Shown here one piece after another: positions 8,341-56,523 of a stretch of DNA of 64,000 nt. This DNA is from Saccostrea cucullata (lineage: Eukaryota): assembly GCF_032062105.1 (NCBI RefSeq), contig NW_026929448.1:248001-312000 (forward strand), in the 5' to 3' direction. A model generated the notes under the pieces. It saw only the letters and a list, made by a program, of their open reading frames with translations. It was not told where the DNA came from and ran no database searches. A program made the position numbers and the translations under genes. Positions within the stretch are counted from its first letter, which is position 1; each line of letters opens with the position of its first letter.

Positions 8341-8343
<3 letters not shown>

Positions 8344-8380
<37 letters not shown>

Positions 8381-9672: not shown

Positions 9673-9709
<37 letters not shown>

Positions 9710-9727
9710 GTGAAAAGTTTACAGACG

Positions 9728-9759
<32 letters not shown>

Positions 9760-9779
9760 GACGGACGACGGACAAAATG

Positions 9780-9815
<36 letters not shown>

Positions 9816-9825
9816 AAGCTAAAAA
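8344..9825 (-). mobile_element. Non-autonomous Helentron/HINE (pearl/CvA-like) with ~166-bp tandem array and (GACG/GACA)n microsatellite
   Basis: End palindrome aacaagaggcccatgggcc plus subterminal gctcacctgag; about 6 monomers at 166-bp spacing; microsatellite 9722-9774; terminal hairpin gctcacttgagccttcggctcaggt. A/T-run insertion site, no TSD. Confidence 0.8.
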
Positions 9826-10051
9826 TCATATCTTGAATTGAAATTACATGGTATTTTATGGAAATGAAGATAGTTATTTGGATGTAAGTGGACGCAGTCA
9901 TTATTGAATAAATTAAATTTGAATGGTCTAAAAGGATCTCAATGTCATATAATCATACAATAAGAAATACTTTGTTAATTGGTTTGCAGTTGCTAAATGT
10001 ATGTTTTATGTATTGATGTAGACTAAGTATTTTACATTTCAGAATAATTAC

Positions 10052-11224
10052 CTGTTTCCAATATTTTGTTATATCTCCTTTGTTGATACGATGCTTTTTA
10101 TTCGCCGGACAGGATGGACAAAGAAAAGTTTCTTTGATAAACTTAGATTCACTAATGACAGCGCTTTCTTTGCTGTCACAAAATCCAGTGGATTTGCATT
10201 TGAATGCAACAAGGAATTCCGAGCTTTTCTGGAATGTGTTGGAGAGGTTATCTAATATACGCTCAATGTTTTCCCTAATCTGGTGACAGGTTGAAACATC
10301 AACTTCTCCCTCCACAACAAACACTTGCAACTGAATTTCTGTTTGAGTCATTCCAAGCATGATGTTATGGTGCTGGTCATGAAATACGAGAATAGCTGCA
10401 GTCTGGTAAATGCATCCTCTGTCTTCATCTGTAAAAATCTCCCAGTTAGGAATCTGCATGCACGTTGCTACAAGGCGATGGAAAATTTCAACAGGAAGAA
10501 CATCAAACGTGTAGCAAAGGATGGAGGAGGCAGGGTATGATGAAAAGCAGTCTACTGGAAATTGCATCTTGTTCATACAGGGGACATACCAAATTTTGTC
10601 GCTCTTTTTAGCTAAGAGTCCTAACTTCTCCATGTACATCATGATATCCTCTTTGTGCTCAAGGTAACCATTGTTGTTCATTCTCCATATGGCAGAGAGT
10701 AGTGCTTCATCTAACTCTCCAGTTTCATTGAATTTGTCCCATTCTGAGGCATATTCAAATAAATCTTCTTTTGCATGGTTTTTATCTGTTATGACATTTC
10801 TAAATGCATCTGCAAACCACTGAACGTCGAGGATAATAACTTTATTGAGGAATTGTTGATTGAAGTGCATAAGTTCTCTGATGTCATGGAAGAACTGCAG
10901 CATGGCATCCATATCTTCAATAGTATGGAGCTTTATTCCCTCAGGCAATGTTTCATTGAAAGCCTGAAGTTCAACCCTACTCAAAATCTTGCGAATTTTC
11001 TTTTCCTGAAAGAATGTTTCAAACATAGCCCATGACTGTGGAAGCTCTTCACCCCAGTGATCAAGCTTGCACACAACATCAGCAATGGACAGCTTAAGTT
11101 TTTCAATGCTTTTATTGTCATGGAATCCAACCGCAAATCGCCGTTTCACATCAATATGTTTTTGCAAAGACTTCTTCTTCATGTCAAGAGTCTTCCATAC
11201 TTCTCGGAAAAACAATTCTTTTTC
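10052..11224 (-). CDS. Roco gene exon 7: end of Roc, then COR domain
   Basis: Acceptor ttttcgttag|GAA, donor CAG|gtaatt. WGEELPQSW, LQFFHDIRELMHF, VIILDVQWF, WYVPCMN, LPVEIFHRLV are COR-type motifs. Confidence 0.85.
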
Positions 11225-11445
11225 CTAACGAAAACAAATTCTTCATTTTATTTTATGCTAACAAATTAGTCATAGTAAAATAATGTTCATAATCATACAA
11301 TGATTGTTATTGTTTTGTTCCCACAGAGTTTATGAAACACATTTATACCTGTTTATATTATATTAAATAGTTAGAGATCAGAAAAACCATGTCAAAGTAA
11401 AATATGCATGTGTAAACAATAAATAACAGTATTTAAAAATGATAC

Positions 11446-11543
11446 CTTCTCTGTTTTGTTCTCACTGTGTGTTCCAACCAGGATGACAGGAGCCTTATCA
11501 CTGCCATATTGATGAATGGACTTCATCCAGAATTCAAGATAAT
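11446..11543 (-). CDS. Roco gene exon 6: Roc G4 region (absent from the ORF track)
   Basis: 98-bp exon with ttttcag| and |gtatc sites; translates DYLEFWMKSIHQYGSDKAPVILVGTHSENKTEK; phase 1 in, phase 0 out. Confidence 0.85.
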
Positions 11544-11700
11544 CTGAAAAACAAAAAAAAAACATTCAGCTATAAGAGTTTTCTTTGAGATAGATTGCAG
11601 GAAATGATGGCGGACGTAAATGAAAAACTATATAGGTAAGAGCTATTTACAAGGCAGGGCATACATGTAACAAACTTATTGCCTTCGTGAGGCTGCAGAG

Positions 11701-13048
11701 AAAGGCCAATGGACCACATCGCTCACCTGAGCACTAGGGGTAGGAAAAGGTAAAAATTGGCTTTTTATTAGTTAAAAAGTAGTCCCATGACCAATCATGG
11801 ATTTGTCATTTTTTAGAAAATGATTTTTAAAGAATTTTCCTATATATATCTTTGAAAACTTTGTTCGGCCATTTTGATTTTGGCCCTGCCCTACCCCTGG
11901 GGGTCATGATTTGAAAAAACAAAATGAATCTACACTACCTGAGCATGCTTCCATATAAATATGATGAATTATGGTTTTGTCATTCTTGAGAAGGAGATTT
12001 TTAAAGAATTTTCCTATATATTTCTATGTAAAACTTTGGTCGGCAATTTTGCCCCCCCCCCCTCTTTCCCCCGGGGTCATGATTTGAATAAACTTGAATC
12101 TACACTACCTGAGCATGCTTCCATTAAATATGATGAATTATGGCTTTGCTATTCTTGAGAAAAAAAAAATTAAAGAATTTTCCTATATATTTCTATGTAA
12201 AACTTTGGTCTGCCAGTTTGGCCCTGCCCTACCCTCAGGGGTTATGATTTCAACAAACTTGAAACTACACTACCTGAGCATGCTTCCATATAAATATGAT
12301 GAATTGTGGCTTTGTCATTAAAATTCTTGAGAAGAAGATTTTTAAGGAATTTTCCTTTATATTTCTATGTAAAACTTTGGTCGACCATTTTCGCCCCGCC
12401 CTACCCCTGGGTGTCATAATTTGAACAAACTTGAATCTACACTACCTGAACATGCTTCCATATAAATTTGATGAATTATGGCTTTGTCATTCTTGAGAAG
12501 AAGATTTTTAAAGAATTTTCCTATATATTTCTATGTAAAACTTTCGTCGGCCATTTTGTCCCGCCCTACCCCGGGGGGTCATGATTTGAATAAACTTGAA
12601 TCTATACTACCTGAGCATGCTTCCATATAAATATGATGAATCATGGCTTTGTCATTCTTGAGATGAAGATTTTTAAAGAATTTTCCCATATATTTCTATG
12701 TGAAACTTTGGTCGGCCATTGTGGCCCCGCCAAAATCCCGTGGGTCATGATTTGAACAAATTTGAATCTACACTACCTGAGGATGTTCTTCCATAAGTTT
12801 CATCTTTCCTGGCACAGTGATTCTTGATAAGAAGATTTTTAAAATATGCCAAAAATTTTCATTTATTCCCAATTATCTCCCCTTGAATGAGGGCGTGGCC
12901 CTTCATTTGAACGAACTTGAATCCTCTTCACCCAAGGATACTTTGTGGCAAGTTTCTTTGAATTTGACCCAGCGGTTTTTGGGAAAAGTCGAAAATGTGA
13001 AAAGTTTACAGACAGCCGAACAGGAGACAGAAAGACGCCGGACAAAAC

Positions 13049-13092
<44 letters not shown>
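11701..13092 (-). mobile_element. HINE/Helentron-type element with satellite array
   Basis: Same terminal motifs (cacatcgctcacctgag; aaaagctcacttgagctttcagctcaggtgagct) and ~166-170-bp tandem monomers. Confidence 0.78.
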
Positions 13093-13293
13093 TAAAAAAT
13101 GATTATCGTTTAGGATAAAAGTTTCTTAGGTCTAAAGTTTCGAAATTCAATAAGGCAGATAGGTTCTGAAAATAGGGAAAACTTAATAATTTCCTTTTTA
13201 GTACGTCAATTACATTTATCAATGCAATAAATTTTGATCTGATGTGATGGTCCTTTTGGGCCATGCATATAATAATTAAAATACATGTACTAC

Positions 13294-13818
13294 CTCTGTG
13301 TGTCCATCCCCTGTAAATGGAACCTTCCTGACAACACACTTCTTCTCCAACCTTATCATCAAACTTCTTCTCCATATTCAGCACCAGAATGAAGAATGCC
13401 CGGGGACTCAAAAAAATTTGGTGTGAGGCATAATATGAACACTGTCCTGCAAAGTCAGTCATGGTTATTTTTTTATCTGGATCTTCTGAAATATCTTCTG
13501 CACCTATCTGTAAATTTCCAGAAATTTCTGGACTATGACGAATATCTTTTCTTTCCTTCATAACATCTGCTACATTTTCCGGTGATGTGGCCCCCTGTGG
13601 TTCATGGGATGAGGTTGTTTTAATGTCGGTATCATCATGTGATATCTGTCCACTGCTTGATGCTTCAGTCGTATTGCCCTCATCATCAGGTGTTTCCATC
13701 TTTTCCTGTATTTCCTCATCATTGGCTGCATTTTCTGAATGGTATTCAGGAACACTCTGCTTCATATCTTTTTTATCAAGTCTGAGTTTGAAGTGTTGCT
13801 TTTGGCTTGAAGTATTTG
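13294..13818 (-). CDS. Roco gene exon 5: acidic low-complexity insert plus Roc G3 motif
   Basis: Acceptor ttcatttgcag|, donor G|gtagta; 525 bp, phase 1-1; ITMTDFAGQCSYYASHQIFLSPRAFFILV. Confidence 0.85.
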
Positions 13819-16244
13819 CTGCAAATGAAAATGAATGCACATGTAACACCTTCTCACTTTGTTGTTTCTGTACTTTAAGCAAACAGACTATTATACTACT
13901 TTATATAAATCTGCAACTTAAGAAATAAATTCTAGGGACAATGAGAGTATTGAACTCCCAAAATGACATCCCCAGGCAGGTTCCAATTGAGTATGATGGT
14001 GAATTCTTTGTTTTACTACTGAAAAACCAAATATCTGTCCAATCTGTCCAATCTTAACATAAAGAAGGATGTAGGAATGGCATAAATTTTATTTTATAGT
14101 AAATATTATGTAAAAGTGTTGTTTATTAAGTTGTACAGGTGGAATTGCAAATATGAGATGGGTACCACCAATATAATGGTAGTTTCTATGTTTTGCATTA
14201 GGAAACCATAAACATGTGTCCATTCAAAGAGTAAAACAGAAGGTTTAAAATTTCTCTATATAACAAAGATTCTGTGAAAGTCTCAATAATTTGATTAAGT
14301 AGTAACAATCTTTATTCAGTGGTTAAGCGGTAATGAGGAGTTGCAGATAAGAGATAGATACCCCAAAACGTAATAGACGGACAGATGGAAGGATGGATAG
14401 GAGGACACCTTCATCGATATTACACACCCTACTTTCCATGAAGACAAGTAGGGGGATATGGTGCTTCCACATACAATTTTAATCCTACGTATAGATCTAA
14501 TTATAACACAGGGTATCTAACTCCGAATTACACTCAGTACCCCCTCCTCGGAAATGCATTCATTTACACTTTCAGAGGAAATGCACTAACAAACTGTTTA
14601 TTACCTCTGTCTTCTACGATAATTTATCTACACAATCAAATATGGCATGCATGTGTTTGTTTTCTTTTATCTCCGTAAACTGCAGCGTCTAAACCCTGCT
14701 CACCGATGGAAAGTCGACTTCATTTATGAAACAGTATGTGCTAATCTCGGACAAAGAGCAAAATTTAAAAAATGAGTGAGTTAAAAAAATCAATTCCATA
14801 TTTTAAAAATTGCATATTAATATTGAATAAATAAAATTTGCTAAAGTCTTATTTTCCATAAAAACACTATGAAGTTTTTCCCATGTAATTTTAGATACAG
14901 ATCAATCAAATTCGGGCTCAAATTATTTGCCCTGTTTAAATCAAAAGTTCATAATAATCAATAAGAAATCATTATATTTAACATTGCAAATGCACCAATT
15001 ACAGAAAAAGTTTAATCTTTGCTTTTAAAAAGAACATTTGAAAAATATATACTCAGTATACTGGTTGATCACAAACCAATGAAACATAAACGAATACATT
15101 TTTTGAGCGGCATTGACCTTTTGTAAATAACCACACGCACGTAGGATATGACCCTCTCCCTCCATTCCATTCCCCCCCCTTGAAAAGTGGGGGATATTAA
15201 TTTGGGTTTGTCTGTCCGTCCGTCCGTCCTTCTGTCTATCTGTAACACTTTCGTTTCCACACGATATCTCGAGAACCCTTTAAGCTTTCTCAATGAAATT
15301 TTTCATAGCAACTCCCTGTGGACTAAAGTAGAACCTTGATTTTGAGGTCAAAAGGTCAAAGGTCAAGGTCATAAATTCGCAAATTCTGTCTGTAATAACA
15401 ACGTTTCCGCACGATATCTCAAGAACCCTTTGAGCTTTTGCAATGACATTTTACATATTAACTCCCTGTGGCCTAGGGAAGAGCGCTTTTGATTTTGAAG
15501 TCAAAAGATCAGAATTCAAGGTCATACATTTACACATTCTGTCTGTGTGTTTACACTATCCTTTCCGGGCGATATTTCAAGAAGATTTTGAGCTTTTGCA
15601 ATGTAATTTTATACCAAAACTCCCTAGGACCTCTCTCACCCCTCTCAAAGTGTCCCGCCCCGTTTGTTTTATTAGTATTTATTTATTATATGTCCCTATT
15701 TTTAGCACAGGGGCATGAGGAGAGTTATTACGAATAAAACAGGTTCTTGGCAGACTTTATATTCTTTCTACATCCATTAGAACTGTTTAATAATGGTTAT
15801 ATAGACATCATGCATTGTGTAAAATTTTTACAATATTGAACGTGAATATAATTATACATGTATGTGTGACTTCATTTTTGCATATAATTTTCAAGCGGAT
15901 CCGAGATGTAGTGGTATGTCTCTCGCTTCACATGTGAGAGGTACCGGGATCTAATCGAGGGCAATCCATCTTCTCTTTTTTTCGAAATACTTTTTTTTAC
16001 AAAATGATAGTATTCAGCATGTGAGTTGAAAAATTTTTGAGGCCTGGCTTGCACAAACTCATAAAATCATCATTACGGTGTGATCAATATTCCATATAAA
16101 AAGAATCTTCTATACACATAATAAAGAATAAACAATTAAATTTTTATATCCGTACTGGCATATTTAATTTTCTTCTGTATACATTGAATAATTCTACAAA
16201 TTCAGTCAGGGGGATCCGACCCTCCCCCTGAACTGCACATGGTT

Positions 16245-16619
16245 CAGGGGCATAGCAACGGGGGGGTGGGGGGTGGGGGGGGGGGTGGTGCCCCCCACTT
16301 TTTCCACCAACCTTACTTATACTATAGGAAAAGTTAATTGAAAGCTTGGTTGCCCCCCCACCCCCCACACACTTTTAGTGATGTACCGAAAATGTAGTAT
16401 GAGAATTGGTAGTGAATGTAGTTGACACTGAGAAATAGTTTACCTCAACCCCCCCCCCCCCCCCCCCCCCCCAACCACCACCACCACCACCACGAAAAAG
16501 GGTTTTCAACTTTGGGCAATTTCTTTTTTTATGTTTTTTTTTTTTTTTAACTTTTTCAGGTAAGTAAAAAAAAAATTTTCTCTGGCTGCCCACCTTTCAA
16601 AAACGATGCTACGCACCTG
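16245..16619. mobile_element. CAGG-terminated MITE with poly-G/C tracts
   Basis: TIR caggggcatagca / tgctacgcacctg, flanked by TGGTT on both sides. Related copies at 21207-21452 and 35791-36034. Confidence 0.55.
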
Positions 16620-16907
16620 TGGTTCACTTTTTCCCTAAGCGGGGGACAAAAATTCTCTGAATTAGCTTGTTCTAGCTAAAGCCGGGGATTAGTAAACTTT
16701 TTCCGATTTTTGTATTTTTACTGAACTCTACCCTATATGCGGTTGATTTAATCGAAATATTTACTAATCGAAGGCACATAAAAAATTAAATAAAAATCTG
16801 AAAAGAAAGAAGAATGTCTTTATAATTTTTTGATATCTGCATATTATATGTTTTCCGACGCTTTAGATTATGATAAAGTGACGATTAAGTGAGGCAGACG
16901 ACGAGAA

Positions 16908-16908
<1 letters not shown>

Positions 16909-16945
<37 letters not shown>

Positions 16946-17517
16946 GCTTTGACCATTCTGTTCTTTACCAGATTTCCCCCATCTTATACATAATGCATCC
17001 CCACCCTACCGCACTGATCATAATTTAGACATTTTGAAATCTACACTACCCCATGATCCTTCCATGGGCACATATGTTTCAGCTTTTTTGGCCCAGTGGT
17101 TCCCGAGAAGAAGATTTTCAAAGATTTTTCCTATATATTTCTATGTAAAACTTTGATTCCCCATTGTGGCCCTACACTACCCCAGGATGCTTCCACATAA
17201 GTTTCAGCTTTACTGGCCCAGTGGTTCTTGAGAAGAAGATTTTTTAATGACCCAATCCTATTTTTGTCTTTTCTTGATTATCTCCCCTTGCGAGGGGATA
17301 TGTCCCTTCATTTTAACAATTTAAATTCCCCTTTACCCAAGGATGCTTTGTACCAAGTTTGGTTAAAATTGGCCCAGTTGTTCTTGAGAAGAAGTCGAAA
17401 ATGTGAAAAGTTTACAGACGGACAGACAGACGGACAGCTAGACGGACGGACGGACGGACGACGGACAAAATGTGATCAGAAAAGCTCACTTGAGCCATCG
17501 GCTCAGGTGAGCTAAAA
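16909..17517 (-). mobile_element. Short HINE, near-identical to 8344-9825 but lacking most of the tandem array
   Basis: Same termini, unique segment and microsatellite; only about one monomer. Confidence 0.8.
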
Positions 17518-18290
17518 ACAAATTGCAAGCCATCTTTTTTTTATATATCAGTCGAAAAAGAAATACATGTTTTTAAAGACAGCGCAAAGAGATAAAAGGT
17601 TAACATTATTAGTAACATGCAATGCGTATTTAAATTCCAAAATAGGAACACCCCCAGAAAAACGGAAAAGTATCATGGTGTGATTTTTGATAAAAAAAAA
17701 ATATTAATAGTTACATTTAGCAGACTTTGTCATATACATTTAATTACTAGTAACTATAATAACTTTTAATTACAGGTCACCATGACCTACTTTTTGGTCA
17801 TCACTCTCCGAAAACCCAAGACGCATCAACTCACAAAATTTGATGATTCTAAGCCAATAAATACCTAAGATACTAAGATATAGCCATAAAAAGTTAAAAG
17901 TAAGTCACAGTGACCTATTTTTTGGACATCATTGTCCGAAACCCAAGATGCATCAACTTACAAAGTTTGATGATTCTAAGCCAATAAGGACCATACTTAA
18001 ATAAAGCCATAAAATTTCAAAAGTAGGTCACCGTGACCTACTTTTTGTTTGTTACTCTCTGAAAACCCAAGATGCATCAACTCAAAAAGTTTGTGATTCT
18101 AAGCCAATAAATACCTAAGATAGTAAAATATAGCCATAAAATGTTGAAACTAGGTCATTGTGACCTATATTTTTGTCGACATTTTTCATAGTCACAAGAT
18201 GCATCTGCTGACCAAGTTTGATGATCCTAGGTCTGAAGGTAATCAAAATATGCCTTTTAAACAATTCGAAAACAAATGCCTGCAAAATTC

Positions 18291-18898
18291 AACAAGAGGC
18301 CCAGGGGACACATCGCTCACCTGAGCAATTTGCTAGGAAAAAGCACATATCAGATCCGAACTTTCCGAACTGAGTTTGGGGGGGGGGGGCTTGAATTTTA
18401 ACCTCATAGGGGGTCATGGTTTGAACAAACATGAATCTACACTACCTGAGGATGATTCCATATAAATATCACTAAGCATGGATTTGAAGTTCTTGAAAAA
18501 AAGATTTTAATAGGTTTCCCTATATATTCCTAAGTAAAACTTTGATCGGCCATTTTGGCCCCACCCTACCCCCGGGGGTCATGATTTGAACAAACTTGAA
18601 TCTACACTACCTGGTGATGATTCCACATGAGTTTCACCTTTCCTGGCCCAGTGGTTCTTGAGAAGAAGATTTTTAAAGATTTTTTCTATATATTCCTATG
18701 TTAAACTTTGTGATCGGCCATTTTGGCCCCACCCTACCCCCGGGGGTCATAATTTGAACAAACTTGAATCTACACTACCTGGTGATGATTCCACATGAGT
18801 TTCATCTTTCCTGGCCCACTGGTTCTGGAGAAGAAGATTTTTTAAAAATGCCATTAATTTTTCTCTAATTCATAATTATCTCCCCTTGGAAAAGGGCA

Positions 18899-18935
<37 letters not shown>

Positions 18936-18951
18936 TAAGGATACTTTGTGG

Positions 18952-18985
<34 letters not shown>

Positions 18986-19049
18986 GAAGAATATGAAAAT
19001 GTGAAAAGTTTAACAACAACGACTACAATGACAACGACAGACAACGGAC

Positions 19050-19081
<32 letters not shown>

Positions 19082-19100
19082 TGGCTCAGGTGAGCTAAAA
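18291..19100 (-). mobile_element. HINE nested in the ~140-bp array
   Basis: aacaagaggcccaggggacacatcgctcacctgag ... gagcctttggctcaggtgagctaaaa; the host unit resumes on both sides. Confidence 0.75.
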
Positions 19101-20229
19101 AGTAGGTCACAGTGACCTACTTTTTCATTAATATGTTTTAAGGTCCCAAGATGCATCAATTAACAAGATTTGATGATTTTAAACCTCTCAGTGTCTGAAA
19201 TAATTGGATTAATTGTTTTAAGAAGAATTAGTCATAAAGTTCAAAAAGTAGGTAACAGTGACCTACTTTTAAGCTGACGTTGTTAAGGACCCAAGATGCA
19301 TCAACTGACAAATTTTGATGATCATAGGCATTAAAGTGCCCGAAATATGCCTTCAAATCAATTTGAAAACAAATGCCTACAAAATTTAAAAAGCAGGTCA
19401 CCGTGACCTACTTTTGCGTTAACATGATGTGAAGTTGTAAGATGCATCAACTTACAAGATTTGATGATCCTAGTCCTAATAGTAGGCAAAATATAAACGT
19501 TTTTATTATTTGTAAATTTAGGTCAATTTAAAGTGACCTTGAGACCACGCTCTTTGCCCGAGGGTCATGCCTTAAAGAATTTTTAATCTTCAACATATCC
19601 TGATCCTTGTATGTAAGTTTGGTGAAAATCTGCCTGGTGGTTCTGGAGAAGAAGATTTTTAAGCAACCAGTACTTTTTGTTTTGTTTTCTTGATTATCTC
19701 CCTTTGTTTAGGAGTCCCAACCCTTATTTTAGTATAAAAGGTAGCCCTTGGGCCCAGGATACCCTGTGACAAATTTGACACTGATTGGCCAAGGGGTTCT
19801 TGAGTTATGGCCCATATTCTAAAAAGTTAATGCACACCGCAACTTGCACAAATGGCCATAGCAATAGCTCTTTGAGCCTCAATCTTCGCCAAATCTTTTT
19901 TTCAGCACATGCCCTTCGGGCAGGTGTGATCACCAATTACGCAAGCCCGAACAAATAATTACATGCCCAGAATTTTATCAAGTTATTTTATTCTTATTTG
20001 CCTTTCCATGCAAAGGAAATAATCTGAAAATCCAATCTGTCAATTTCTTGTCTCGCCATTTGTTTTCAACCTGTACACTTTTTGTGTCTCTTTTGCGGAA
20101 GAGTTCCTTGGAAATCGCGGTAAAATAAGATGTCGGTAAAATTTTATTTTTTTTTTACTTCACTTAGATTGAAAATCAGAGACTTTAAAGTACATTTTAT
20201 GTTTTGAGTCTTATTTAATTCAATTATAC

Positions 20230-22656
20230 CACAGGTACTTGTGGACAGGACCCCCCCCCCCCCCCCTTAAACACCCCTGGTGTTTAAAAATATTTTTTTT
20301 CTTTTTTTGTCATGAATTATGTTTCTAGTACTTATTTACAACGTATTCCATATGAAAAATCCAAAAAATAACATAGATTTGACGATTTACTAAAAAAGTC
20401 ATACCCTGGTATTATAAAATAGAGAAGGTAAGTCACTTCGGGTTGTTAATTCGGACCCCTCTTGATTATCGGGCCTAAAATATCATATACCTACTACATG
20501 TCACCAAAATGGGTCATGATATCTTGTTTCGGTAGAGATTTTTGTCGTTAATCGTGCCATTTAATTGCCCAGACATTCCCCAGTTATCCGAGTATTCAGC
20601 ATCAAACGTGAAAAATTTGGAAATGTCAAAGCAGAAATTACGGAAGTGATCCAAAAACGACACCTAGCGGGTAACTTTCGAGTTCCGAGTGTCATAGAAT
20701 GAAGGGAAAAGCCAGAGAACTACGAAAAAGTTCGGGAAAATTTTGATAAAAGTCGAAATCGATTCATTAGAATTTAGATTTTGCTGCAGATTTTCGAGAT
20801 GAATTAGGGTCGTCTTCAATATTCTTTTTACTAAAGACGATTTGTTACTGATACAATATAGTGTTTTAAAAATCGCATAGAGACATTAAATGACATGTAA
20901 CCCCCCTTTTCTACGTGGATATGTTTAGGCAAACTCAACTTTAATTTTCTAGTGACTGTGTCTGCGTAAAGGTTGATTTCTGTTAATGCGTTAGTTTAAA
21001 TAGATAAATACGACCAGAAATGTGCTTATTCAAAACAGCACAAAAATCATTATTCGCTATATTATTTATTATATGGGAAGGAGTGTGTGCACGTCATTAC
21101 AGGTTAGAATTATTTTGATTATACTATAAATGTAGAGAAAGGCGTCTATCCCATATATCCCAGAATACATCCCATCCAATATTCAGTAGTCAAAATCAAG
21201 TACATGCAGGCACGTAGCATCGTTTTTTGAAAGTGGGGGGGGGGGGGCAACCAGAGAAAAATGTTTTTTTACTTGCCTGTAAAAGTTGACAAGCAAAAAA
21301 AGGAAATTTGCCCAAACTCGAAAATCCTATTTTGGGGGGGGGGGGGGGGGGGGGTAGTGGCCAACCTTTTCCAAGGCCAACTCCCTTTTACTTCCAATTT
21401 TTTTGCATACAATACCACATTTTCTTCCTGGCCCCCTATTGCTACATCCCTGAGTACATGTACAACAAGTGACAATATTAAACGATGGCTGTTAGATAAG
21501 ACATACCGAAAGTAGTTTTAAGTCTATGAATTTATACCTAGACAGGCTCGTAGGAAGCAATTTCAGACTGGGGGATGGGGAACAGCCAAACATTTTTAGT
21601 TAGGGCACTATGCTATCAACTTAAAATTCCGCAACAAGCAAAAAGAAATGTCACTGGTTTTTATTGAGGGGCACGAGCATATAGTACCCGTACAGCATAT
21701 TATATAATACATTTATAAAAATATTATTCCTACGGCCATGTTAGATAAATAAAAAGAAGTTAAGCTTCTTTAACAAAGCAGCTAGATATACACAGCCAAG
21801 ACCAGAAACAAACTCCGAGGCTGTAGTAAGGACAATAAACGAGAGAATGTGATCTAATGAAAAGTTCCGATTTTCATTTATTTTTAAGAAACGATTCATA
21901 AATGCTTAAATTCTATGGCAAGTGAGAATCATTGTATAAGATAATTAATTTCATGATATCGGAATTATTGTAGATTGGGGCGGCGATGGGGGTGGGGGTT
22001 ACATGTATTTTAATGTCTATTGCGATTTTTAATACGCTATATGGTATCAGTGATAAATCCTCTAAAAAGAATATTGAAGACGACCCTAATTCATCTCGAA
22101 AATCTGCAGCAAAAATTTAAATTCTAATGAATCAATTTCAACTTTTATCAAAATTTTCCCGAACTTTTTCGTAGTCCTCTGGCTTTTCCCTTCATTCTAT
22201 GACACTCGGAACTCGAAAGTTACCCGCTAGGTGTCGTTTTTGGATCACTTCCGTAATTTCTGCTTTGACATTTGTAAATTTTTCACGTTTGACGCTGAAT
22301 ACTCGGATAACTGGGGAATGTCTGGGCAATTAAATGGCACGATTAACGACAAAAATCTCTACCGAAACAAGATATCATGACCCATTTTGGTGACATGTAG
22401 TAGGTATATGATATTTTAGGCCCGATAATCAAGAGGGGTCCGAATTGACAACCCGAAGTGACTTACCTTCTCTATTTTATAATACCAGGGTATGACTTTT
22501 TTAGTAAATCGTTAAATCTATGTTATTTTTTGGATTTTTCATATGGAATACGTTGTAAATAAGTACTAGAAACATAATTCATGACAAAAAAAGAAAAAAA
22601 AATATTTTGACCAGGGGTGTATAATGGGGGGGGGGTCCTGTCCACAGGTACCTGTG
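20230..22656. mobile_element. Foldback-type DNA element with ~600-bp TIRs and 8-bp TSD
   Basis: About 20230-20850 is the near-exact reverse complement of about 22045-22656; termini CACAGG...CCTGTG; AATTATAC at 20222-20229 and 22657-22664. Confidence 0.85.
21207..21452. mobile_element. hAT-like MITE
   Basis: TIR caggcacgtagca / tgctacatccctg; 8-bp TSD AGTACATG (21199-21206, 21453-21460). Confidence 0.75.
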
Positions 22657-45695: not shown

Positions 45696-45949
45696 TGTGG
45701 TGGTCTTGGAGGAGCCGGGGACGAATTCCCCGGTAGCCTCCGATCACGTGTCCAGCAATGATGCGGTATGACGTAACACTCTCTCTCTTGTGCTGATTGT
45801 TGAACCGATTGGACGTGTTACCTTATTCTCTGTAAGTCACTGTATTATTGTCACATATATTTGGCGACCACTAACTAATAAACGTGCGGAATTTTACCAT
45901 AGTGTTTCTGTTGTCCGCCATCACAGATATGTAATACAGAAATACTATA
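45696..45949 (+). repeat. 5' LTR of inner Gypsy
   Basis: Direct repeat of 54116-54369; contains AATAAA; followed by the PBS. Confidence 0.95.
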
Positions 45950-45950
45950 T

Positions 45951-45969
45951 TGGCGCTGCGAGCAGGGTT
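45951..45969 (+). promoter_or_regulatory. Primer-binding site, tRNA-Ser-like
   Basis: TGG-initiated sequence 1 nt after the LTR, resembling the complement of metazoan tRNA-Ser 3' ends (from recall). Confidence 0.7.
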
Positions 45970-46415
45970 TTTTTGTCTGGGCAGCGGGGTGCCGGCCTAA
46001 CCACGTGTTGTTAGTGCCGTCGCCATCTTGAATTTTTTGTGACTTTTTATTTTATGATGTAACTCTATAAGGTTAAAGTCTTTGTGTATTTGACTTATTG
46101 TTTTATACTTATAGCGTATTAGCCGCAAGGTATTTTTATGTACTTTTAATAAATTTATCTTGTGATCTGAGGACTGGTGTTATGGACCGAGAGATTAGCT
46201 CGTTTGGTCTAGGTAGAGGGGCTTTGAGACCAGGGGGGCTGGTATGCTCGCGGAGGGGGAGGAGACTGGATTGGTCTGATAGGTACCCCGTTAGAGTGCA
46301 GTCCAGGGAAAGTCCCGCATGCTAAGAGTGTGAAGTTCGTCCCCGGTGTTGCTAGTACACCGATGCCCCAGGGGGGAGTGCCCCGGATAATATCACTCAG
46401 TATGGGGAGGGGGAC

Positions 46416-48480
46416 ATGTCACTCACTCAGGGAGCTATTTCGGAGGGTCTAGGGAAAACACCCGGATGGTCTGCATTTTATTCCCTCTTCCAGGAACGAC
46501 AGCAGATACTGGAGGGAGCGGTTGACCGAATCCAAGGGGAAATGGGTCAGTTCCGAGGGAATATTAGTCAAATTCAAGGTGACCTTGGTATGGTACATAA
46601 AAGGGTGGATACCCTAGGTCAGGATATGGGGGCCCTGAAAGGGGATATTGATGCCCTAGGGACTATTGTGTCAGAACAGCTGGGGTCTATGGGATCTCAT
46701 ATAGGTGCCTTTGAGACAAGTATGGTAAAGCAACTGGGGTCTATGGGATCCGCCATTGGGTCTATGGAGACAAATATGGGGGGCCAGTTGAGTAATATCA
46801 CACAGATGTTGGCTGGATTAATGAAGGCCAGTCAGCCCCAGTCACCCCCACTCATGCAGGATAATAAAGTCGGTCAGCCAGTAGTGACTAGTAGCCAGGG
46901 GAGTCCTTGGGTCCCTAGCGCACTACCCGGACATCAGATGCCTGCAAGTACCCCAGTAGTGTCCGCACAAAGCGGAGAGTCTATACCTGTTTCTGTGGGG
47001 GGACCCAGTGTGCACATGTCTCAAGGTCATTCCTTATCCTCACTTGGCAATGACAGTTTAGTCTCGGGATTGCCGAGCACTATTACTTTGGGTTCATTCG
47101 CGTCAGGGGGGACCGATTACCCAGTACTCCCGCGACATTGCCCTTAGCGTCCGCGCATCATAGTGTTGCTGACTCGAGTGGTCAGGGCGCTGGCCACTAT
47201 GGTAGGTTGGTTGGGGAGTCAGTTATATTAGGGGGTAGTCCGTCGTTTGTGCCCGGTTATAGGGGTTCGCATAATGCAGGACAGAGTCATTCGCTAATGA
47301 CCACCGCGTATCAGAGCCTATTGCCAAGTTTACTACCCGCTGGTACCCGTAGCTGTGTCAGTAAGAATATTCCGGCCGAGGTCAAAGGGGTGAAATATAT
47401 AACGGGGATGTAGAATGGGGACCTTTTTACTCGAAGTTCTCCACTATTGCCGAGTATCATCAGTGGAGCGATCCTGACTCTCTGTTTGCCCTAAGTCTTA
47501 CGTTAGAGGGGGCAGCTCTTAAGTAATTTGATATCCTCAGACGGCGAGGCGCGCTGTTAAGTTTCCGAGAGGTCGTTCTCTGGATGGAGGAGAGATTCGG
47601 AAAAACTTCCCTCAGAGCCGCCTCACAGCTGGAATTCAATTCTATCTGCCAGCGAGCGGACGAAGCTATAGAGCAATGGGGGGACCGAGTTATGGACACT
47701 GCCCAGAAAGCCTTTGGTGGCGGTACTTCGCCAGAGGTATTCCAAGAACAGATAATCGTTCGTTTTGCTCTTGGGTGTAATGACGGCGAGGCGGGGCAGC
47801 AGTTAATTAATAATCCCCCGGGGACTCTAGAAGAAGCGATTAAGAGAGTTAAGACTTATCAGCTTAGTCGCAGAGCTTTAGCCCGCCGGCCGAGAGCGGT
47901 TAGATTGCTATCTAGGGACCGTCAAAATGACCGCAGTCAGTCGCCAAATTCGAGTTATTATCGGGCCAGATCAGATTCTGAGTGTTAAGATCTTTACGTG
48001 GCACGCAGAGGGCGCTCGGAGTCAAGGGACCGCTCTAATCGTGCCAGCGGGGACCGTCCTTATCGTGCCAGCAGGGGCCGTTCACCTGATCGTGCCAGCA
48101 GGGACCGTTCCTATGATCGTGCCAGCGAGGACCGTCCTCGCCGTGCCAGCAGAGACCGTTCTGATCGCCGTGCCATCAGGGACCGCTCCGAGTCGCCGGA
48201 TTTGGATTCAGGTAAGAAGCATTACTCCAGTGACTCGGAGGACCGCACCCGAGGATCAAGTCCAGCGCGAGGATCCTCGAGGGATCCGTCACCGGATAGG
48301 GGCCGTTGTCGCGCACCGAAACCTATAGTATGCTTTGAATGCCAAGAGCCAGGGCACTTGCTTCGCGACTGCCCGATCCGCCAGCGACGGCGTAGATCGG
48401 GGACCCCTAAGCCTTGTCTTAAGTCATCGAGTAATAAATCTAAAGACAAACATAATGCGTCAGACCATGAAACAGATGTC
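46416..48480 (+). pseudogene. gag: Inner Gypsy gag (coiled-coil N-terminus, capsid-like region, RS-rich repeats, CCHC knuckle), disrupted
   Basis: ORF pieces 46416-47147, 47584-47988 and 47998 onward; CFECQEPGHLLRDC; several stops and frameshifts. Confidence 0.8.
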
Positions 48481-51400
48481 AAGTTCTATGAGCCGAATGT
48501 GAACGCGACCTATGTAATTCCGTCTGTTAGGTCCGGTAGTCAAACCATTGGTTCAGGAGCGTGGCGTATTCCGATAAGAGTAGGAGGCCAACAAGTGAAA
48601 GCAACCATCGACACAGCAGCCGATATAACAATAATATCAAGCGACGTTGACAAGTCTTTGAGGCCGCAGCCCGAAGTTATAAGCAATACTAATGTTAGGC
48701 TAGCTGGCGAGGGAGCTGGTATGACCGCTCAGTACCTCGGTTGTCTTAACATACGCATCGGGGATTATGATTTTGCTCACCCGATCTATGTTGGTTCTCT
48801 GCAGGATGAGATGCTCTTAGGAATAGATTTCCTGTGCAAGCATGGTGTAGAAATTTCATGTGAAGCCGGTACTTTAAGGGTCAAGGGCATTGACACTACA
48901 TTTGCTATGAGTGTTGATGAGTCAGTACCAGTACTCGATGCGGTTTCAGTCCGCAGAGTGCGGATCCCCCCGCACGCTGCTCAAATCATCGAGAGTACCC
49001 TTAGTTCCGATATGCCAGAGTTTATGCTGGAGCCAGCCAGCATATTTCCGCCTGGTATAGTAGCTTCGCGGACATACAACACAGCAGGAAACAGAGCCAA
49101 GCTGTGTATCTTGAACTTGACAGACCGAAGTCATATTGTTAAGACAGTCACTAAGGTGGGGAAAGCAGTCCCCGCCGATCTAGTTGATGATGCTAGACCC
49201 ACAGTGCGGCGTGTAACCTTTGAGGGGGATGAGAGTTATGACCATATCGCCCCACTCTTAGAGCAGTTAAATAAGACCGCGCCTGTGGAAGTCAGATCTG
49301 AGGCAGCGGAGCTAGTCAAGAAATTTGCCGATGTCTTTGCTACTGATGACCTTGATCTCGGAAGTTTTTCCGAGATCGAACACCGAATAGACACCAGTAA
49401 CGCGTCTCCTGTCAAGCAGCGGATGCGACGCACCCACGCTGTTTTTCAAGGGGAGGAAGAGGGTCATCTCGATAAGATGTTAAAAGCCGGAGTTATCCAG
49501 CCATCTCCTTCAGACTGGGCGTCCGCCCCAGTTCTGGTCCGGAAGAAGGATGGCAGTGTCCGTTGGTGCGTGGATTATAGAGCCTTGAACAAGGTGACAG
49601 TCAAGGACACGTACCCTCTGCCACTCATCGAGGAGTGCATGGATACGCTAGCGGGGAACCGCTGGTTTTCTAAGCTCGACGCTAACGCGGCTTACTGGCA
49701 AGTTAAGATAGCTCCGGAAGACCGGAAAAAGACTGCCTTTATAACAAAATATGGCTTATTCGAATTTACCAGAATGGGGTTTGGTGTGTGTAATGCCCCC
49801 GCAACCTTCGCTAGGGCCATAAATTTGGTATTACACAGACTTAACTAGAAGATTGTCTTAGCTTTCTTAGACGATATTCTAGTACTTGGATCTTCCGCAC
49901 ACGCTCACCTTGATAACCTACGACAAGTGTTTGAGCGGTTCCGAGCATATGGCCTTAAATTCAAGCCTCGGAAGTGTGAACTATTTAAGACTAAGGTTGA
50001 GTTCCTTGGTAGAACCGTGAGCGGAGTTGAGATGGGGGATCAGTACATCGAGTCAGTGCGTGACTGGCCTGTTCCGCGTGATGTTAAGGGCGTAGAGCGT
50101 TTTTTGGCTTCGCCAATTATCACCGTAGTTTCATCCCTCACTTCTGCAGAATTGCGGCTCCGCTGTATGCGGTTACCGGAAAAAATGGTTTCCGGTGGGG
50201 GGAAGAGCAACATAATGCTTTCGAGGAACTCATTCAGTTAATGACTAGACCTCCAGTTCTAGCGATACCGAACAGTACAGGTCATTTCATCCTGGAAACT
50301 GATGCCTCGGATCTTGCCGTAGGCGGGGAATTAAGCCAAGTCCAGGGTGGGAAAGAAAGAACCATTAAGTATGGGAGTGCTGTGCTATCCGCAGAACAGC
50401 GCAGATATTGTACAACTCGTAAAGAGCTATTGGCGGTAATTAAGTTTACCAGACAATTCCGCCATTACCTGCTGGGTCGTGAGTTCACAGTCAGGACCGA
50501 TCATCATAGCCTGGTCTGGCTGATGAACTTCAAGCATCCGCAGAACCAGATTGCTCCATGGCTCGAGGAACTGAGCCAGTACAACATGCGGATCGTACAC
50601 CGCCCGGGGAAGAAGCATGTGAATGCTGACGCTCTGTCCCGGGATATACCCGATTCATGCCAGGGGTACTCGACGAGAATTAGGGTCGAAGACTTGCCCT
50701 GCGGCGGATGCCGTTATTGCCGCCGAGCCCATGAGCGCTGGCATGACTTTAATACTGAAATAGACGATGTAATTCCTTTGTCCCAACTCTTTGACGAAGC
50801 GCCTGTGCCAGCGGAGATTCCGTCCGCTGAGGGGGGTAACTGTAGTTCATTAGATCCCACCCTTCGTCAGGCCATTGTTTCTAGTTCTTGGGAAGATACT
50901 CCCTCGACTGTGAGTGCGTCTGCACTCCCCAGTTTTTAGATTAATGTTAGTGGGGTATCAAGTTTAGATCCCAAGATTGAGACAGTTAGTCCTCAAGTCT
51001 GTCAGGTAACAGGTGACACTGCGGGAATTTCGCTATCCTCATACAGTCCCGCAGACCTAGCTCAGAAACAGAAAAATGACAAAGCTATAGTTTACCTAAG
51101 ACAGTACTTAGAGTTTGGGGACCTACCTACCGAATGTGACTTAATTATCTGTAGTCCGGAAGGGAAGTGCTATCTTCTGGAGCGAGACTGTTTTTATCTC
51201 GACGAGACAGGAGTAGTTTGGCGAGAACCGGATGACTCGGATACGCCCCGTCGGCTTCTAGTGCCGCGGAGTCTCAGATCCGAAATGATGCACTTATGTC
51301 ATGACATACCGTCCTCTGGTCACCAGGGAATATAGAGAACTAAAGAACGCCTTAAACAACAGTTCTACTGGTGGCAGATGACAAAGGACATAAAGCTATA

Positions 51401-52786
51401 TGGCAAGACTTGCGACGTATGTGCTAGGAATAAGCAAGCTTCGCTGCGGAACAGATCAGAGCTCAAGAGCTACCAAGCCGGAAGCCCGATGGAGAGGGTA
51501 CATCTAGACTTTCTCGGGCCGCTTCCCCGAACTGATAGCGGGAACGAATACATCCTCATGATGGTTGACAACTTTACCAAGTGGGAAGAGTGCATTCCGC
51601 TTCCGTCTCAGACAGCGGAAGTAACCGCCCGTTCCGCTATCAATGACTTCTTTTCTCGATTTGGCTATCCTTACGAAATCTTTACAGATCAGGGCCGTAA
51701 CTTAGAGAGTGAGCTGTTCTGTAAGATTTGTGCCATGTTAGGGATCCATAAAGCCAGGACCACACCCTACCGTCCGTCAGGGAATGACCAGGTAGAGCGC
51801 TACAACCGCACTCTAATATGGACGCGGTTCGTTGCTACGTAGATGGCCAGCCCAAGTCATGGGATAAGTACCTAGGCCCATTGGCTGGAGCGTTGCGGTC
51901 CGCGGTAACCCGCCATACTGAATACACTCCAAATCGTCTCATGCTGGGTAGAAAAGTAAATATACCAGCGACATTGATGTTCGCCCCACCGCCTTCCACG
52001 TCTTTTCAAAATGGGGAGGAGGGTGAGGTAGACAAATATGTACGTGATCTAGAACAAATTGTTCAGAGCGCGCACGACATTGCCCGCGGAAAACTAAAAG
52101 TCGCGCAAAAGGCAATGAAAAGGTCTCATGACATTAGGGTCCGTACCAGTAAGTTCAAGGTCGGAGATTTGATCTACTGGCGCCGCAATGCGGGAAAAAA
52201 GGTAGAGTCAGTATGGAGGGGTCCTGGGATAATAACCGAAGCCAAATCGGACACAATATTTGTTGTAAAATCTCGGCGCGAGGTCAAGGTCATACACCAT
52301 GACAAGCTTAAAAGGTGCGAGTCCAGGCAACTCCCCAAATGGTTAATAAACTATAAGAATAAGTTGCCCGGACAGTCAGTAGCCCGAGATGGGGATAGTT
52401 CTCCTACACGTGATGTGGTAGCACCGCTGGGGACCGCAGACTCAGGAATTAGTCCTGAGAGCCCGGGGAACGGGGGTCACTCAAAAGCTAGCCCCAAGCC
52501 AGCAGAGTCAGTAGGTCAGTACATGGGTACCCGCAAACGGGTTAGGGAGAGATTAGCTCAATCTAGACAACCCCAATCGCCCATGAGACCTAGAGCCACT
52601 AGGGGGACGAGAGCTAAGAAATATTGTGTTTGCCTACAGTCTAATCCCAAGGGAATGATGGTGCAGTGCGACAAGTGTCGGGACTGGTTCCATCCGGGGT
52701 GCGTAGGTATAAGTGAGGACTACGCCAAGTCGATACCTCAATATATCTGCCCCGAATGTAGTCCTGTCGGAGTCGACACTGGTTAG
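48480..52786 (+). pseudogene. pol: Inner Gypsy pol: protease, RT, RNase H, integrase, C-terminal PHD finger; disrupted
   Basis: IDTAA; WCVDYRALN, FSKLDA, FLDD (RT); ETDAS, RKELLA, TDHHSL, NADALSR (RH); HLDFLGP, TDQG, QVER (IN); C4HC3 PHD at 52622-52759. Stops at 49846, 50937 and about 51333; frameshifts near 50100 and 51815. Confidence 0.92.
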
Positions 52787-52942
52787 TTAGAGCAGTTAGG
52801 TTTCCGCAATGATGCGGAAGCATGTGCAAGTCTCAGGTTTACATCAGGTTAGGGTAGACTTGTACATGAAGTAGTAAGTTAGACATAGGTCTGATAATCT
52901 TACCTGTCTTTGTAGGTTCATAAGTGATGTCTAAGGAAGTTG

Positions 52943-53676
52943 ATGAGTGTGTCTTTGAGTGCAGAAGCTCCGCCGATGAAGAGATGCGTAACTTATGGTT
53001 TACGAGAGGAACCCCTCTCGGAGTTGGGTAATCCGCATTGGGTTGTAGCTCAGGGGATTTCCCCTGGGTCTGCGGACTTCGTTCTGCAGTCCGGTGTAGC
53101 CGGCGTTGTCGGAGAGTGTAGAAGCAAGAACTTTGTGATTGGGGAGATTGGACTGGATTACTCCAGTCCAGCCACTCAGAGGTGCCAGAGGTTCATGTTG
53201 GCGGAGTTCTTCCGCCAAGCGATGTTCAGTACGGGGATGATTTTGGTTGTGAAGGGAACAGCGGACGACCCTTTGGGCCGCGTCCCTACACAAGATTGCC
53301 TTACCCTGATGGACGGGATGTTTGTTCCCATCCTAGTACCTATCTTTGTCCGTGGTTTCACTGGTGGACCGGAGCAGGTTAGGCTCTGGGTGAAGTCTGG
53401 CAGACCCGTATTCTTTGGAATCGGAGGTAAGATCGCGGAAATGTCAGCGACCCAGTTGTCGGGAGTCAGAGCTATTCCTATGGACCGACTGTTAGTCGAG
53501 TCGGATAGTCCTTTTTTTTTCCTTGTGGAGTTGAGCCGCCGATGGGCCCCAGGCACATCGGGGAAGTTTACCGTCGGGTCGTCGCAGCGAGGGGACAGGA
53601 CGTCGCCTTGCTAGCGGGTCTTGTGTTCAGGAACTTTAGAGTGTTCTTTGGACCCCAGTTGAGGGGATTCTTATAA
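52943..53676 (+). CDS. TatD-like TIM-barrel nuclease homologue carried by the Gypsy (one -1 frameshift at the T-run 53512-53520)
   Basis: VIGEIGLDY, RGFTG, FFGIGG and IPMDRLLVESDSP. The -1 frame continues PCGVEPPMGPRHIGEVYRRVVAARGQDVALLAGLVFRNFRVFF, resembling the TatD terminal helices. TAA at 53674-53676. Confidence 0.8.
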
Positions 53677-54115
53677 ACTACTGCTGTTATAGCCGGGATG
53701 TATAGCCCGCATTACTTACCTGAGTTTACCTGAATCGGGAGCAGATAGTCCTGATGTCTTTGCCGCACTATAGATGTCGCCTTAGATGTACTAAGCAGAG
53801 CCTATCCAGATGTATCAAAGTTAGACCACTTGGTTGACGACATGAGTCGGATGGTAACAACGAGGGACCTCGTGGTGTTCCGAGACGACGCGGAGGATGA
53901 GTGACTGTGTGATATGAACTGTTTAATCTGTGATTTTTATTATTATAGAGACATTAATGTTTAAAGTTTTATTATTGTGTGAATGCATGTGTATGTATGT
54001 ATGATAGGCCCTGTTAGGTGTTAATTATTATTATTGTTTGTACATCTTAATTGCCCCATTGTATATATATATATATATTACGGGCCGGGACGCCCTATTA
54101 TAAAATGGGGAAGAG

Positions 54116-54369
54116 TGTGGTGGTCCTGGAGGAGCCGGGGACGAATTCCCCGGTAGCCTCCGATCACGTGTCCAGCAATGATGCGGTATGACGTAACACT
54201 CTCTCTCTTGTGCTGATTGTTGAACCGATTGGACGTGTTACCTTATTCTCTGTAAGTCACTGTATTATTGTCACATATATTTGGCGACCACTAACTAATA
54301 AACGCGCGGAATTTTACCATAGTGTTTCTGTTGTCCGCCATCACAGATATATAATACAGAAATACTATA
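54116..54369 (+). repeat. 3' LTR of inner Gypsy
   Basis: Follows the PPT; repeat of 45696-45949. Confidence 0.95.
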
Positions 54370-55509: not shown

Positions 55510-56523
55510 AACACAAGTTTTCGTAATATTGGTATTTAGAGATGTAATTTAACTCTAGAAAATGAATAGAAACGTGTAAACATTCACAAAAATAAAATGT
55601 TTTTATTTTGTTATGATGTATCTGTCATCTTGATTAAAATCTACCACCGATGACGTCATATGTGTACATCAAGTAACTTGGGAATCGATCATGTCGTGTA
55701 AAGAGAATTTGGCCTAGATGGCATGTACAAAGATACGTAAAATGGAGCTTTAAGGCAAATATCGTGAATATTATGTGAAATTCATATGGAGTTCAGTTTA
55801 TTAAACATGTATGCTAATTTATTTTTATTGATTATATTCTCTTCCGAAGACAGTCAGCTATATATGTATCCCGGTCGGCCTTTCCTCTGTCGTTCGTGAC
55901 AAAAATAATGCAACAGAACAACAATAAGCTGGATATTTCAAAACATAATATTTGTATAGATGGAAAGTTTGCCTTATAGCAAACATGGAAAGTGCTGCTA
56001 GAATCCCGAGTTAAGCATGGTTTTACGAAAAATCTCGGTTCATACACAGGGGCATCTTATCCACTCTGTTCTCTACTTCACATATGAAAATACACGTTAT
56101 ATGTGAAGTAGAGAACAGAGTGGATAAGATGCCCCTGTGGTTCATATGCATAAAATTCAAAACGTAGGGTAAGGTTTCGTGCGAATATGTGGAATAATTA
56201 ATTTACTGACAGGACTGTGGGATTCTAGCAGCACTTTCTCAACAAAATAGATGTTTTTCAACAATATTATTTACTCAAAGAAATTATTAACTCCGGGGTA
56301 TTGTTGTTCTGTTAGCTTTTTTATTAAGGAGAATTTCGCTATTAATAGAAGTCACGTGATGCCGTGGTGGTGGTGCACTTCTTTGCATTAGACACACTTT
56401 TATCTGTATGCAATAGTTACATGTAATAACAGTTTACATTTATCAGCGATTTGGTAATTCGTCAAACTTATTTTTCTTTAAAAAGTCTAAATTTTCCGAG
56501 AAATGACTTATATTCTTCCTTAA
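55510..56523. repeat. Dispersed repeat, paralogue of 3048-3842, with inserted MITEs
   Basis: Colinear similarity with extra segments. Confidence 0.7.
56045..56139. mobile_element. 95-bp hairpin MITE with 7-bp TSD
   Basis: Perfect 41-bp arms and a 13-bp loop; GTTCATA duplicated; empty site at about 3476-3490. Confidence 0.9.

Follow-up and report, generated by a model that had tools for sequence, protein, structure and literature searches.

The env genes of errantiviruses and retroviruses lie between pol and the 3' LTR and are expressed by splicing, with a donor near the 5' end. An element-borne chromatin-reader domain is reportedly present in an MBD-bearing family of Copia elements. In chromoviruses the element-borne chromatin reader is a chromodomain (PMC13524379), and the available text of a short review of accessory domains names the chromodomain, a DnaQ-like exonuclease and a helicase (PMC6338049). 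The closest described system is that of the rotifer elements Juno and Vesta, in which, according to the available text of their description, ORF3 is a captured enzyme in the env slot, a DEDDy exonuclease or a GDSL/SGNH esterase, organized as a separate spliced and exchangeable unit of unproven function (PMC5408684).

Human TATDN2, a class II TatD protein with an HxH motif and a long N-terminal extension (PMC10085689, PMC10711561), is described in the available text of the latter source as degrading the RNA of R-loops; its barrel alone does not bind R-loops without the N-terminal region, and residues E593 and E705 are essential, with Mg2+ (PMC10711561). For TATDN1, the available text reports that E112A alone lowered both activities, that H149A and H174A had small effects, and that H77A decreased AP-endonuclease activity tenfold (PMC10085689).

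Mollusc Gypsy clades have been named (MolGy1-16, C-clade, Cigr-1 and others; PMC6238403), and the main text, as far as available, of two surveys of mollusc transposable elements and of a survey of errantiviruses mentions neither a PHD finger nor a nuclease ORF. A literature search returned no paper on TatD-bearing LTR/Gypsy elements; Repbase, Dfam and GyDB lay outside it and may hold an entry. For the other enzyme cargoes described below, sequence and word look-ups gave no earlier record.

The window analysed here, a 64,000-nt stretch of the genome of the oyster Saccostrea cucullata (contig NW_026929448.1, positions 248,001–312,000, forward strand), contains a Ty3/Gypsy element whose family carries in the env slot a TatD barrel with replaced active-site His residues. 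As in Juno and Vesta, a captured enzyme occupies the env slot, belongs to a separate spliced unit and is exchangeable, and SGNH enzymes occur in both systems. The oyster enzyme, however, is a TATDN2-type TIM barrel or MBLAC1-like and always stands behind a C2H2/helical module; rotifer LTR enzymes keep their catalytic residues and show no clear departure from neutrality (PMC5408684, a paper in which the word TatD is absent), whereas the His-less oyster family evolves under strong purifying selection. With TATDN2 the element protein shares a sister position, the fold, the three acids and a long N-terminal extension (PMC10085689, PMC10711561), but it is intronless and element-borne, has another N-terminal module and, in the family of the window, has all five His replaced. 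The position between pol and the 3' LTR, the splicing and the donor near the 5' end are those of env, while the architecture is that of a soluble zinc-finger/enzyme protein with no envelope-type domain by Pfam. The chromatin reader of these elements is a PHD finger on the integrase, which differs from the readers named above in kind, and its targeting role is putative. Enzymatic ORF3s are a known kind; the new features are the disarming of a whole family under selection, the recurrence of this disarming in a second nuclease, and a carrier module that the cargoes share.

The host retrotransposon

Region 45696–54369 of the window is a decayed copy of a Ty3/Gypsy LTR retrotransposon family. The 5' LTR (45696–45949, + strand; 254 nt, TG...TA ends, the end type of sister copies) and the matching 3' LTR (54116–54369, +) have 3 differences in 254 nt. 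A putative primer-binding-site-like stretch lies directly 3' of the 5' LTR (45951–45963, +) and a polypurine tract precedes the 3' LTR (54102–54115, +), both recognized by sequence. The target-site duplication of this copy is imperfect (CTTT/CCTT, 3/4), and exact 4-bp duplications are present in sister copies L090, L092, L093 and L097. Gag-pol (46182–52786, +) encodes, in the order given by Pfam, a CCHC knuckle, protease, RT, RNase H and integrase; it is broken into at least 10 pieces in the window and forms one frame of 2,228 aa in copy L081. LTRs, PBS, PPT, target-site duplication and the domain order protease, RT, RNase H, integrase all place the element in Ty3/Gypsy, and the matched LTRs, pol stop at 52786 and PPT given in a first-pass annotation of the window are borne out.

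The integrase ends in a PHD finger (52616–52762, +; Pfam PHD 42.4 bits, cut-off 24), the best PDB sequence matches of which are EBS, PHF2, CXXC1, PHF8, DIDO1 and BPTF (E 4e-13 to 3e-11) and the median dN/dS of which is 0.08. H3K4me3-reading PHD fingers have an aromatic cage of Tyr, Met and Trp, and these residues are present in the finger of the element. Its closest resemblance is to H3K4-reading PHDs; it is common to one whole sub-clade of elements and might direct integration. The literature search listed no publication on Gypsy integrases with a PHD finger.

Elsewhere in the window, a 166-nt satellite-like repeat forms several arrays (8341–19706), an element with 502-nt inverted arms (97%) lies at 20281–22613, and one dispersed repeat is present in two copies (3194–3670 and 55756–56334).

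Structure of ORF3 and its message

A DNA search of the genome (1.17 Gb) gave at least 49 matches (40 of 75 candidates scored). Among 29 other loci fetched, four (L009, L012, L013 and L024) contain an unbroken ORF3 of 625–627 aa, composed of an acidic low-complexity arm, a basic patch, a C2H2 finger, a helical domain, a proline-rich linker and the TatD barrel; this multi-domain protein of about 625 aa, with a TatD domain swappable on a shared module, goes beyond the first-pass annotation. The TatD-like ORF reported there is supported by a Pfam PF01026 match of 44.3 bits in window frame 52928–53611 (cut-off 27, E 1.9e-11) and of 55.4 bits in the unbroken ORF3 (cut-off 27). Pfam found no envelope glycoprotein domain on the 625-aa ORF3, TatD being the sole match. 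In the basic patch, the 12 residues that precede the finger hold 3.7 K+R where 1.24 would be expected (102 of 111 rows).

In the window, the true start of ORF3 (ATG 52927–52929, MSKE...; 52927–52988, +) is cut off by an internal deletion of about 1,130 nt with its junction at 52985–52988 (unstranded; window 52988 corresponds to L081 7397, and window 52985 to L081 8524). Lost with it are the zinc finger, the helical domain, the first barrel strand and most of the N-terminal arm, and an ATG in the wrong frame now precedes the TatD remnant. This remnant (52986–53676, +), lacking the first strand, is frameshifted in a run of 9 T (53512–53520), after which the TatD-like C-terminus continues in the other frame to TAA 53674–53676; the window copy is unable to encode a whole TatD barrel. 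Because of the deletion and the frameshift, the ORF previously drawn from 52943 is a chimera, and a real gene starting there is ruled out. The C-terminus after a −1 shift, also proposed earlier, does lie in the other frame, but the shift is a lesion in the T run; programmed −1 frameshifting is ruled out, as unbroken copies read through in one frame.

Of the 29 loci with ORF3 that were compared, the window among them, 9 have the deletion of about 1,130 nt and three more an 880-nt deletion of ORF3; L014 has a similar one. These recurrent deletions (window 52985–52988; L002, L006, L010) occur in different subfamilies with short microhomology only, and the 880-nt form also appears in sequencing runs X20 and X3.

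Four of 24 listed sequencing runs were aligned to copy L081. A joint L081 86->7325 with GT..AG ends was found in run X20 (oligo-dT RNA) in 2 reads with 2 starts and in X3 (presumed RNA) in 1 contig, and was found in neither X21 nor X1. Aligned onto the window, it connects a donor GTAAGT in the 5' LTR (45832–45837, +), at 45832, with an acceptor (52898–52915, +; AG at 52914–52915) 11 nt ahead of the ATG, the pattern of which is matched in 18 of 20 family copies (L081–L100); transcripts of the family therefore use the acceptor suspected in the first-pass annotation. Read depth is very low (118 and 105 reads among 12.8 and 11.3 million records, less than half of each run), and the reads are assigned to the element family, not provably to one copy. 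This thin record indicates that ORF3 is expressed as an env-type spliced subgenomic mRNA. In L068 (5476–8712), ORF3 is in one frame with the integrase, and in L109, L116 and L123 the N-terminal module is in frame with pol.

Active site of the TatD barrel

The first-strand HxH motif reads DCLWF, with L and F each in 18/18 copies covering the site (10 of the 28 do not cover it) and the whole motif in 17–18 of the 18. The GxHP His is present in none of 28 readable copies (S, P or A instead), the beta5 His in none of 28 (V or A instead), and the beta6 position holds H in 2 of 29 copies and R in 27. In the window itself, the signatures GEIGLDY and LLVESDSP and the substitutions GIHP to GISP, IIH to LVVK and HCFTG to RGFTG, all read earlier by eye, are present, and the His losses extend to the whole family, in the counts just given. 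The absence of HxH also noted there holds for the family, in which undeleted copies have DCLWF, and in the window the motif is missing from deletion. The acidic residues, likewise noted as remaining, are equivalent to TATDN2 E593, E705 and D707 and are kept in 28/28, 29/29 and 29/29 copies. Class II TatD features are thus divided: HxH and the metal-B/GxHP His are lacking, and the GExG Glu and the ExD acids are present.

Most related families keep an intact TatD active site: in 79 ORF3s of other families (7 from the same genome and 72 hand-picked database proteins), each of the five His is kept in 77–79 (HxH in 77/79). A series leads from L113/P0004 with five His through P0003 of S. echinata with two to the window family with none; L078 keeps four, and its twin L077/L147 has the fifth. 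In P0003, represented by one copy only, key acids are also changed, E to D and D to N. In this series the His residues are lost stepwise along the branch.

Structure modelling of the His-less barrel gave a confident TatD barrel (pLDDT 95.4), the model being alignment-driven and partly reflecting the sequences of relatives. The best 16 among the Foldseek matches listed were all of the TatD family (TM about 0.6–0.75), with E 1e-12 to TATDN3 and TATDN1. Since 16 of 29 D/E columns are invariant in the window family in any case, the invariance of the three catalytic acids is weak evidence. Loss of catalysis is a prediction, because the three acids are kept, E593 and E705 are the essential ones in TATDN2, and single His-to-Ala changes in TATDN1 are mild.

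Selection

Selection was estimated as Nei–Gojobori medians over pairs with dS>0.15, the pairs not being independent. Median dN/dS is 0.13 for the TatD barrel (28 copies, 338/378 pairs), 0.08 for the finger with the helical domain, 0.26 for the arm, 0.04 for RT and 0.05 for integrase. TatD variants common to at least 2 copies have pN/pS 0.14 versus 0.51 for singletons, and six single His-less pairs have dN/dS of 0.07–0.14 (Fisher p<=2e-16); none of them lies above the range spanned by three intact-His pairs (0.10, 0.26 and 0.29). These values, far from neutral, point to strong purifying selection on the His-less barrel. With TatD profile matches, at least 49 DNA matches in the genome and non-neutral evolution (dN/dS about 0.13), the proposal of a TatD gene in this element stands, and the DNA matches and selection together exclude an isolated capture or a processed pseudogene confined to one copy.

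Conservation is spread evenly over the barrel. Identity to P0003 is 0.55 in the loops of the old catalytic face versus 0.57 on the back face, and invariant positions number 23/60 on the old face versus 15/35 on the back, with no excess. The barrel is not basic (25 K+R, 29 D+E). Nucleic-acid binding in the old pocket therefore gains no support, the face being no better conserved and the barrel not basic.

Origin and spread of element-borne TatD proteins

A Pfam TatD search of the genome gave at least 151 matches (150 of 178 candidates scored). Among 20 further TatD loci fetched with 8–10 kb, 16 have a same-strand pol upstream; L064 has the integrase tail only, and L071, L074 and L078 have no pol in the stretches fetched. 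With one intact ORF3 as query, phmmer gave 164 clusters at E<=1e-30; among the best 150, the majority align over the module as well as TatD. Named matches are from Saccostrea, Crassostrea/Magallana, Mytilus and the hemichordate Ptychodera, and are mostly annotated as TATDN2 or TatD. Database proteins with 96–99% identity to gene products of the genome analysed bear the label Saccostrea cucullata. Three element-type TatD proteins (P0016, P0178 and P0196) are labelled as genes of Sedimenticola or Thiodiazotropha MAGs; these entries are probably host DNA in symbiont bins, because the proteins group within the element clade.

A tree built from 70 barrels, rooted on TATDN3 and with no TATDN1 row, unites the element TatDs in one incompletely supported group (90/82); host TATDN2, which has introns, is its sister (100/100), and neither TATDN3 nor prokaryotic TatD falls within this pair. 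The barrel was likely captured from host TATDN2, which agrees, together with the LTR context, with the captured nuclease in the env slot suggested by the first-pass annotation, and would make its ideas of R-loop action or a decoy more natural. Bacterial origin or contamination of the ORF3 TatD is ruled out by the LTR context and the TATDN2 sister position. The TatD tree splits into PHD-bearing and PHD-less branches, as does the RT tree (100/99 and 87/91), and this matching split fits one old capture.

The host TATDN2 genes (L101–L104) have introns and are located elsewhere. A cluster of intronless TATDN3-like host genes is formed by L031, L032 and L045 (G000:C14024). L074 (1183–4494, − strand; G000:C18394) contains an intronless ORF of 1,104 aa with two modules and an independently His-less TatD; neither RT nor integrase was found in the stretches fetched around it. 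The protein groups with a Ptychodera protein (98/86), and L074 is possibly a domesticated host gene.

Exchange of the enzyme domain

From the best 150 RT matches of 4,769 candidates, 40 loci (L109–L148) were picked, long open frames being favoured: 2 have TatD, 12 have the N-terminal module and no TatD, and 26 have neither. Among the 12 module-only loci, three encode an SGNH esterase-like enzyme, three an MBLAC1-like protein, five no enzyme, and one is truncated. In the RT tree, which is built on non-random loci and omits L071 and rows with no long RT match, all module-bearing rows fall in one clade of 42 of the 57 rows (99/96), of which 19 count as TatD, 12 as other and 11 as none. TatD as a fixed mark of this clade is accordingly ruled out (19/42 rows only). 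Several elements with swapped cargo have LTRs 98–100% identical.

SGNH/GDSL esterase-like cargo on the same module was observed in L119 (4548–5699), L129 (4033–4953) and L131. By Pfam it is below the cut-off in L129 (20.7 bits) and gives no match in L119; the assignment is based on motifs and a weak match to PDB 4c1b, a retrotransposon ORF1 protein (E 0.009). The MBLAC1-like cargo of L125, L126 and L128 matches human MBLAC1, an endoribonuclease, with E 3.6e-22. Loci with this cargo (L125:3703–5124, L126:6947–7765, L165–L183) comprise intact and motif-less families; the HxHxDH motif is lost at 6 places and kept at 8 (one of the 8 with a neighbouring change), and the family lacking it is under purifying selection, with dN/dS of 0.11–0.24.

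A sister family lacking ORF3 is represented by 8 of 9 loci examined, with pol DNA 91–94% identical and young LTR pairs (100%, 98.5% and 97.4%). Because this family spreads, ORF3 is not needed in cis and is accessory. L122, L132, L148, L159, L160 and L162–L164, as well as L114, belong to sister families without ORF3 that are nearly identical in pol but have another gag and 3' region; L122 lies in a tandem array with a period of 7,587 nt.

The N-terminal module was modelled with pLDDT 91.6. Foldseek gave no match for it at E<=0.001, and by VIA the best Z was 3.2, with C2H2 fingers at Z 2–2.7 over residues 1–60. ESM Atlas leads for the module (unnamed bacterial clusters, 0.94; RAG1 zinc region, 0.92) were dropped for low recognition and fewer than 170 shared features; the His-less protein reached 0.76 only. 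The diverged module of the window family is joined to the shared module by hhalign at 98.9%, a score that includes the barrel. Just outside the clade, the ORF3 of L141 (3382–4137), L143 (3359–4162) and L144 is short and consists of tandem C2H2 fingers alone, possibly a precursor of the module.

Possible function of ORF3

The reading we prefer, and to which we assign about an even chance, is that the disarmed, selected ORF3 barrel serves the element as a non-catalytic decoy. ORF3 would reach the nucleus by way of the basic patch that precedes the finger, and its N-terminal module would be the address, whether for DNA or RNA of the element, for chromatin or for a host factor. Before the disarming, the intact ancestral TatD would have trimmed RNA in R-loops or structured RNA of element transcripts, like human TATDN2; the disarmed barrel would occupy the same substrate or host partner with no cutting, and as a decoy would shield element transcripts from host nucleases or silencing. 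If ORF3 acts in trans, ORF3-less kin could therefore ride along. The decoy is supported by the family-wide His loss with selection and the parallel MBLAC1-like case, by the TATDN2 sister position together with R-loop RNA degradation that needs the N-terminal region, and by the TatD profile, the fold and the basic patch before the finger. It is also supported by Maelstrom and EXD1, inactive nucleases that retain a function in piRNA biology according to the available text of PMC5408684. It is weakened by the kept acids and the old face being no better conserved, by the dispensability of ORF3 in cis (8 copies), its frequent deletion and very low expression, and by the lack of a solved match for the module (best Z 3.2), which makes the role given to the module a guess.

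The kept acids would also suit a working nuclease, in which the His-less barrel holds Mg2+ by three acids alone, the beta6 Arg perhaps taking the place of one metal, and trims element RNA or cDNA. No copy of the family departs from E, E and D, selection matches in strength that seen in intact families, and in the available texts TATDN2 needs only E593 and E705 with Mg2+ (PMC10711561) and TATDN1 H149A and H174A hardly change exonuclease activity (PMC10085689). We nevertheless judge such a nuclease unlikely: all five His are gone together, whereas 77–79 of 79 proteins keep them elsewhere; three invariant acids carry little information when 16/29 D/E columns are invariant; in P0003, the nearest relative, known from one copy, these sites have changed from E to D and from D to N; and in the MBL parallel, too, the metal motif has gone. 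The even conservation over the barrel speaks for another reading, in which the module does all the work and the barrel is a passenger, kept only because misfolding of the appendage would harm or destabilize the protein, or as a spacer or oligomer surface. The module also persists with other or no cargo in 12 of the 40 loci L109–L148 and has a lower dN/dS than the barrel (0.08 versus 0.13). However, a useless barrel could be shed by a stop codon, as the viability of cargo-free relatives shows, but the His-poor barrel has persisted from the divergence of the S. echinata protein (59% identity) onwards and in subfamilies separated by dS of up to about 1; a passenger barrel seems quite unlikely.

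Work of ORF3 inside the virus-like particle or pre-integration complex, in primer removal or protection of cDNA ends and not on host silencing or chromatin, is suggested by L068, in which ORF3 shares one frame with integrase, and by L109, L116 and L123, in which the module is in frame with pol. Nuclease cargo suits reverse transcription, and the available text on the rotifer elements proposes that esterase ORFs aid RNP assembly or membrane passage (PMC5408684). A particle role is distinctly improbable all the same, given the ORF3-less sister family with 91–94% identical pol DNA and young LTR pairs, the own spliced message that ORF3 normally has, and the three unrelated enzymes that fill the slot, no single step of reverse transcription seeming to need it.

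The decoy reading may be extended, tentatively and with considerable doubt, to an old marine-invertebrate Gypsy clade with a zinc-finger/helical platform onto which TATDN2 and MBLAC1 would have been loaded, swapped and repeatedly made into dead decoys. These would provide counter-silencing in trans against R-loop/nascent-RNA surveillance, with the PHD finger steering the elements to active chromatin.

Significance

Little is established about counter-defence in animal LTR retrotransposons, and known accessory genes are few. The clade described here offers natural comparisons within one genome, namely, intact and disarmed TatD and MBLAC1-like proteins, an esterase, the module with no cargo, and elements with no ORF3; in all of these forms the pol genes are close relatives. 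Of the bivalve genes that carry the annotation 'TATDN2', many are probably retrotransposon ORFs, and so are some 'TatD' entries of bacterial MAGs. Two independent conversions to a conserved His-less form suggest that selection in these elements keeps binding, not cutting.
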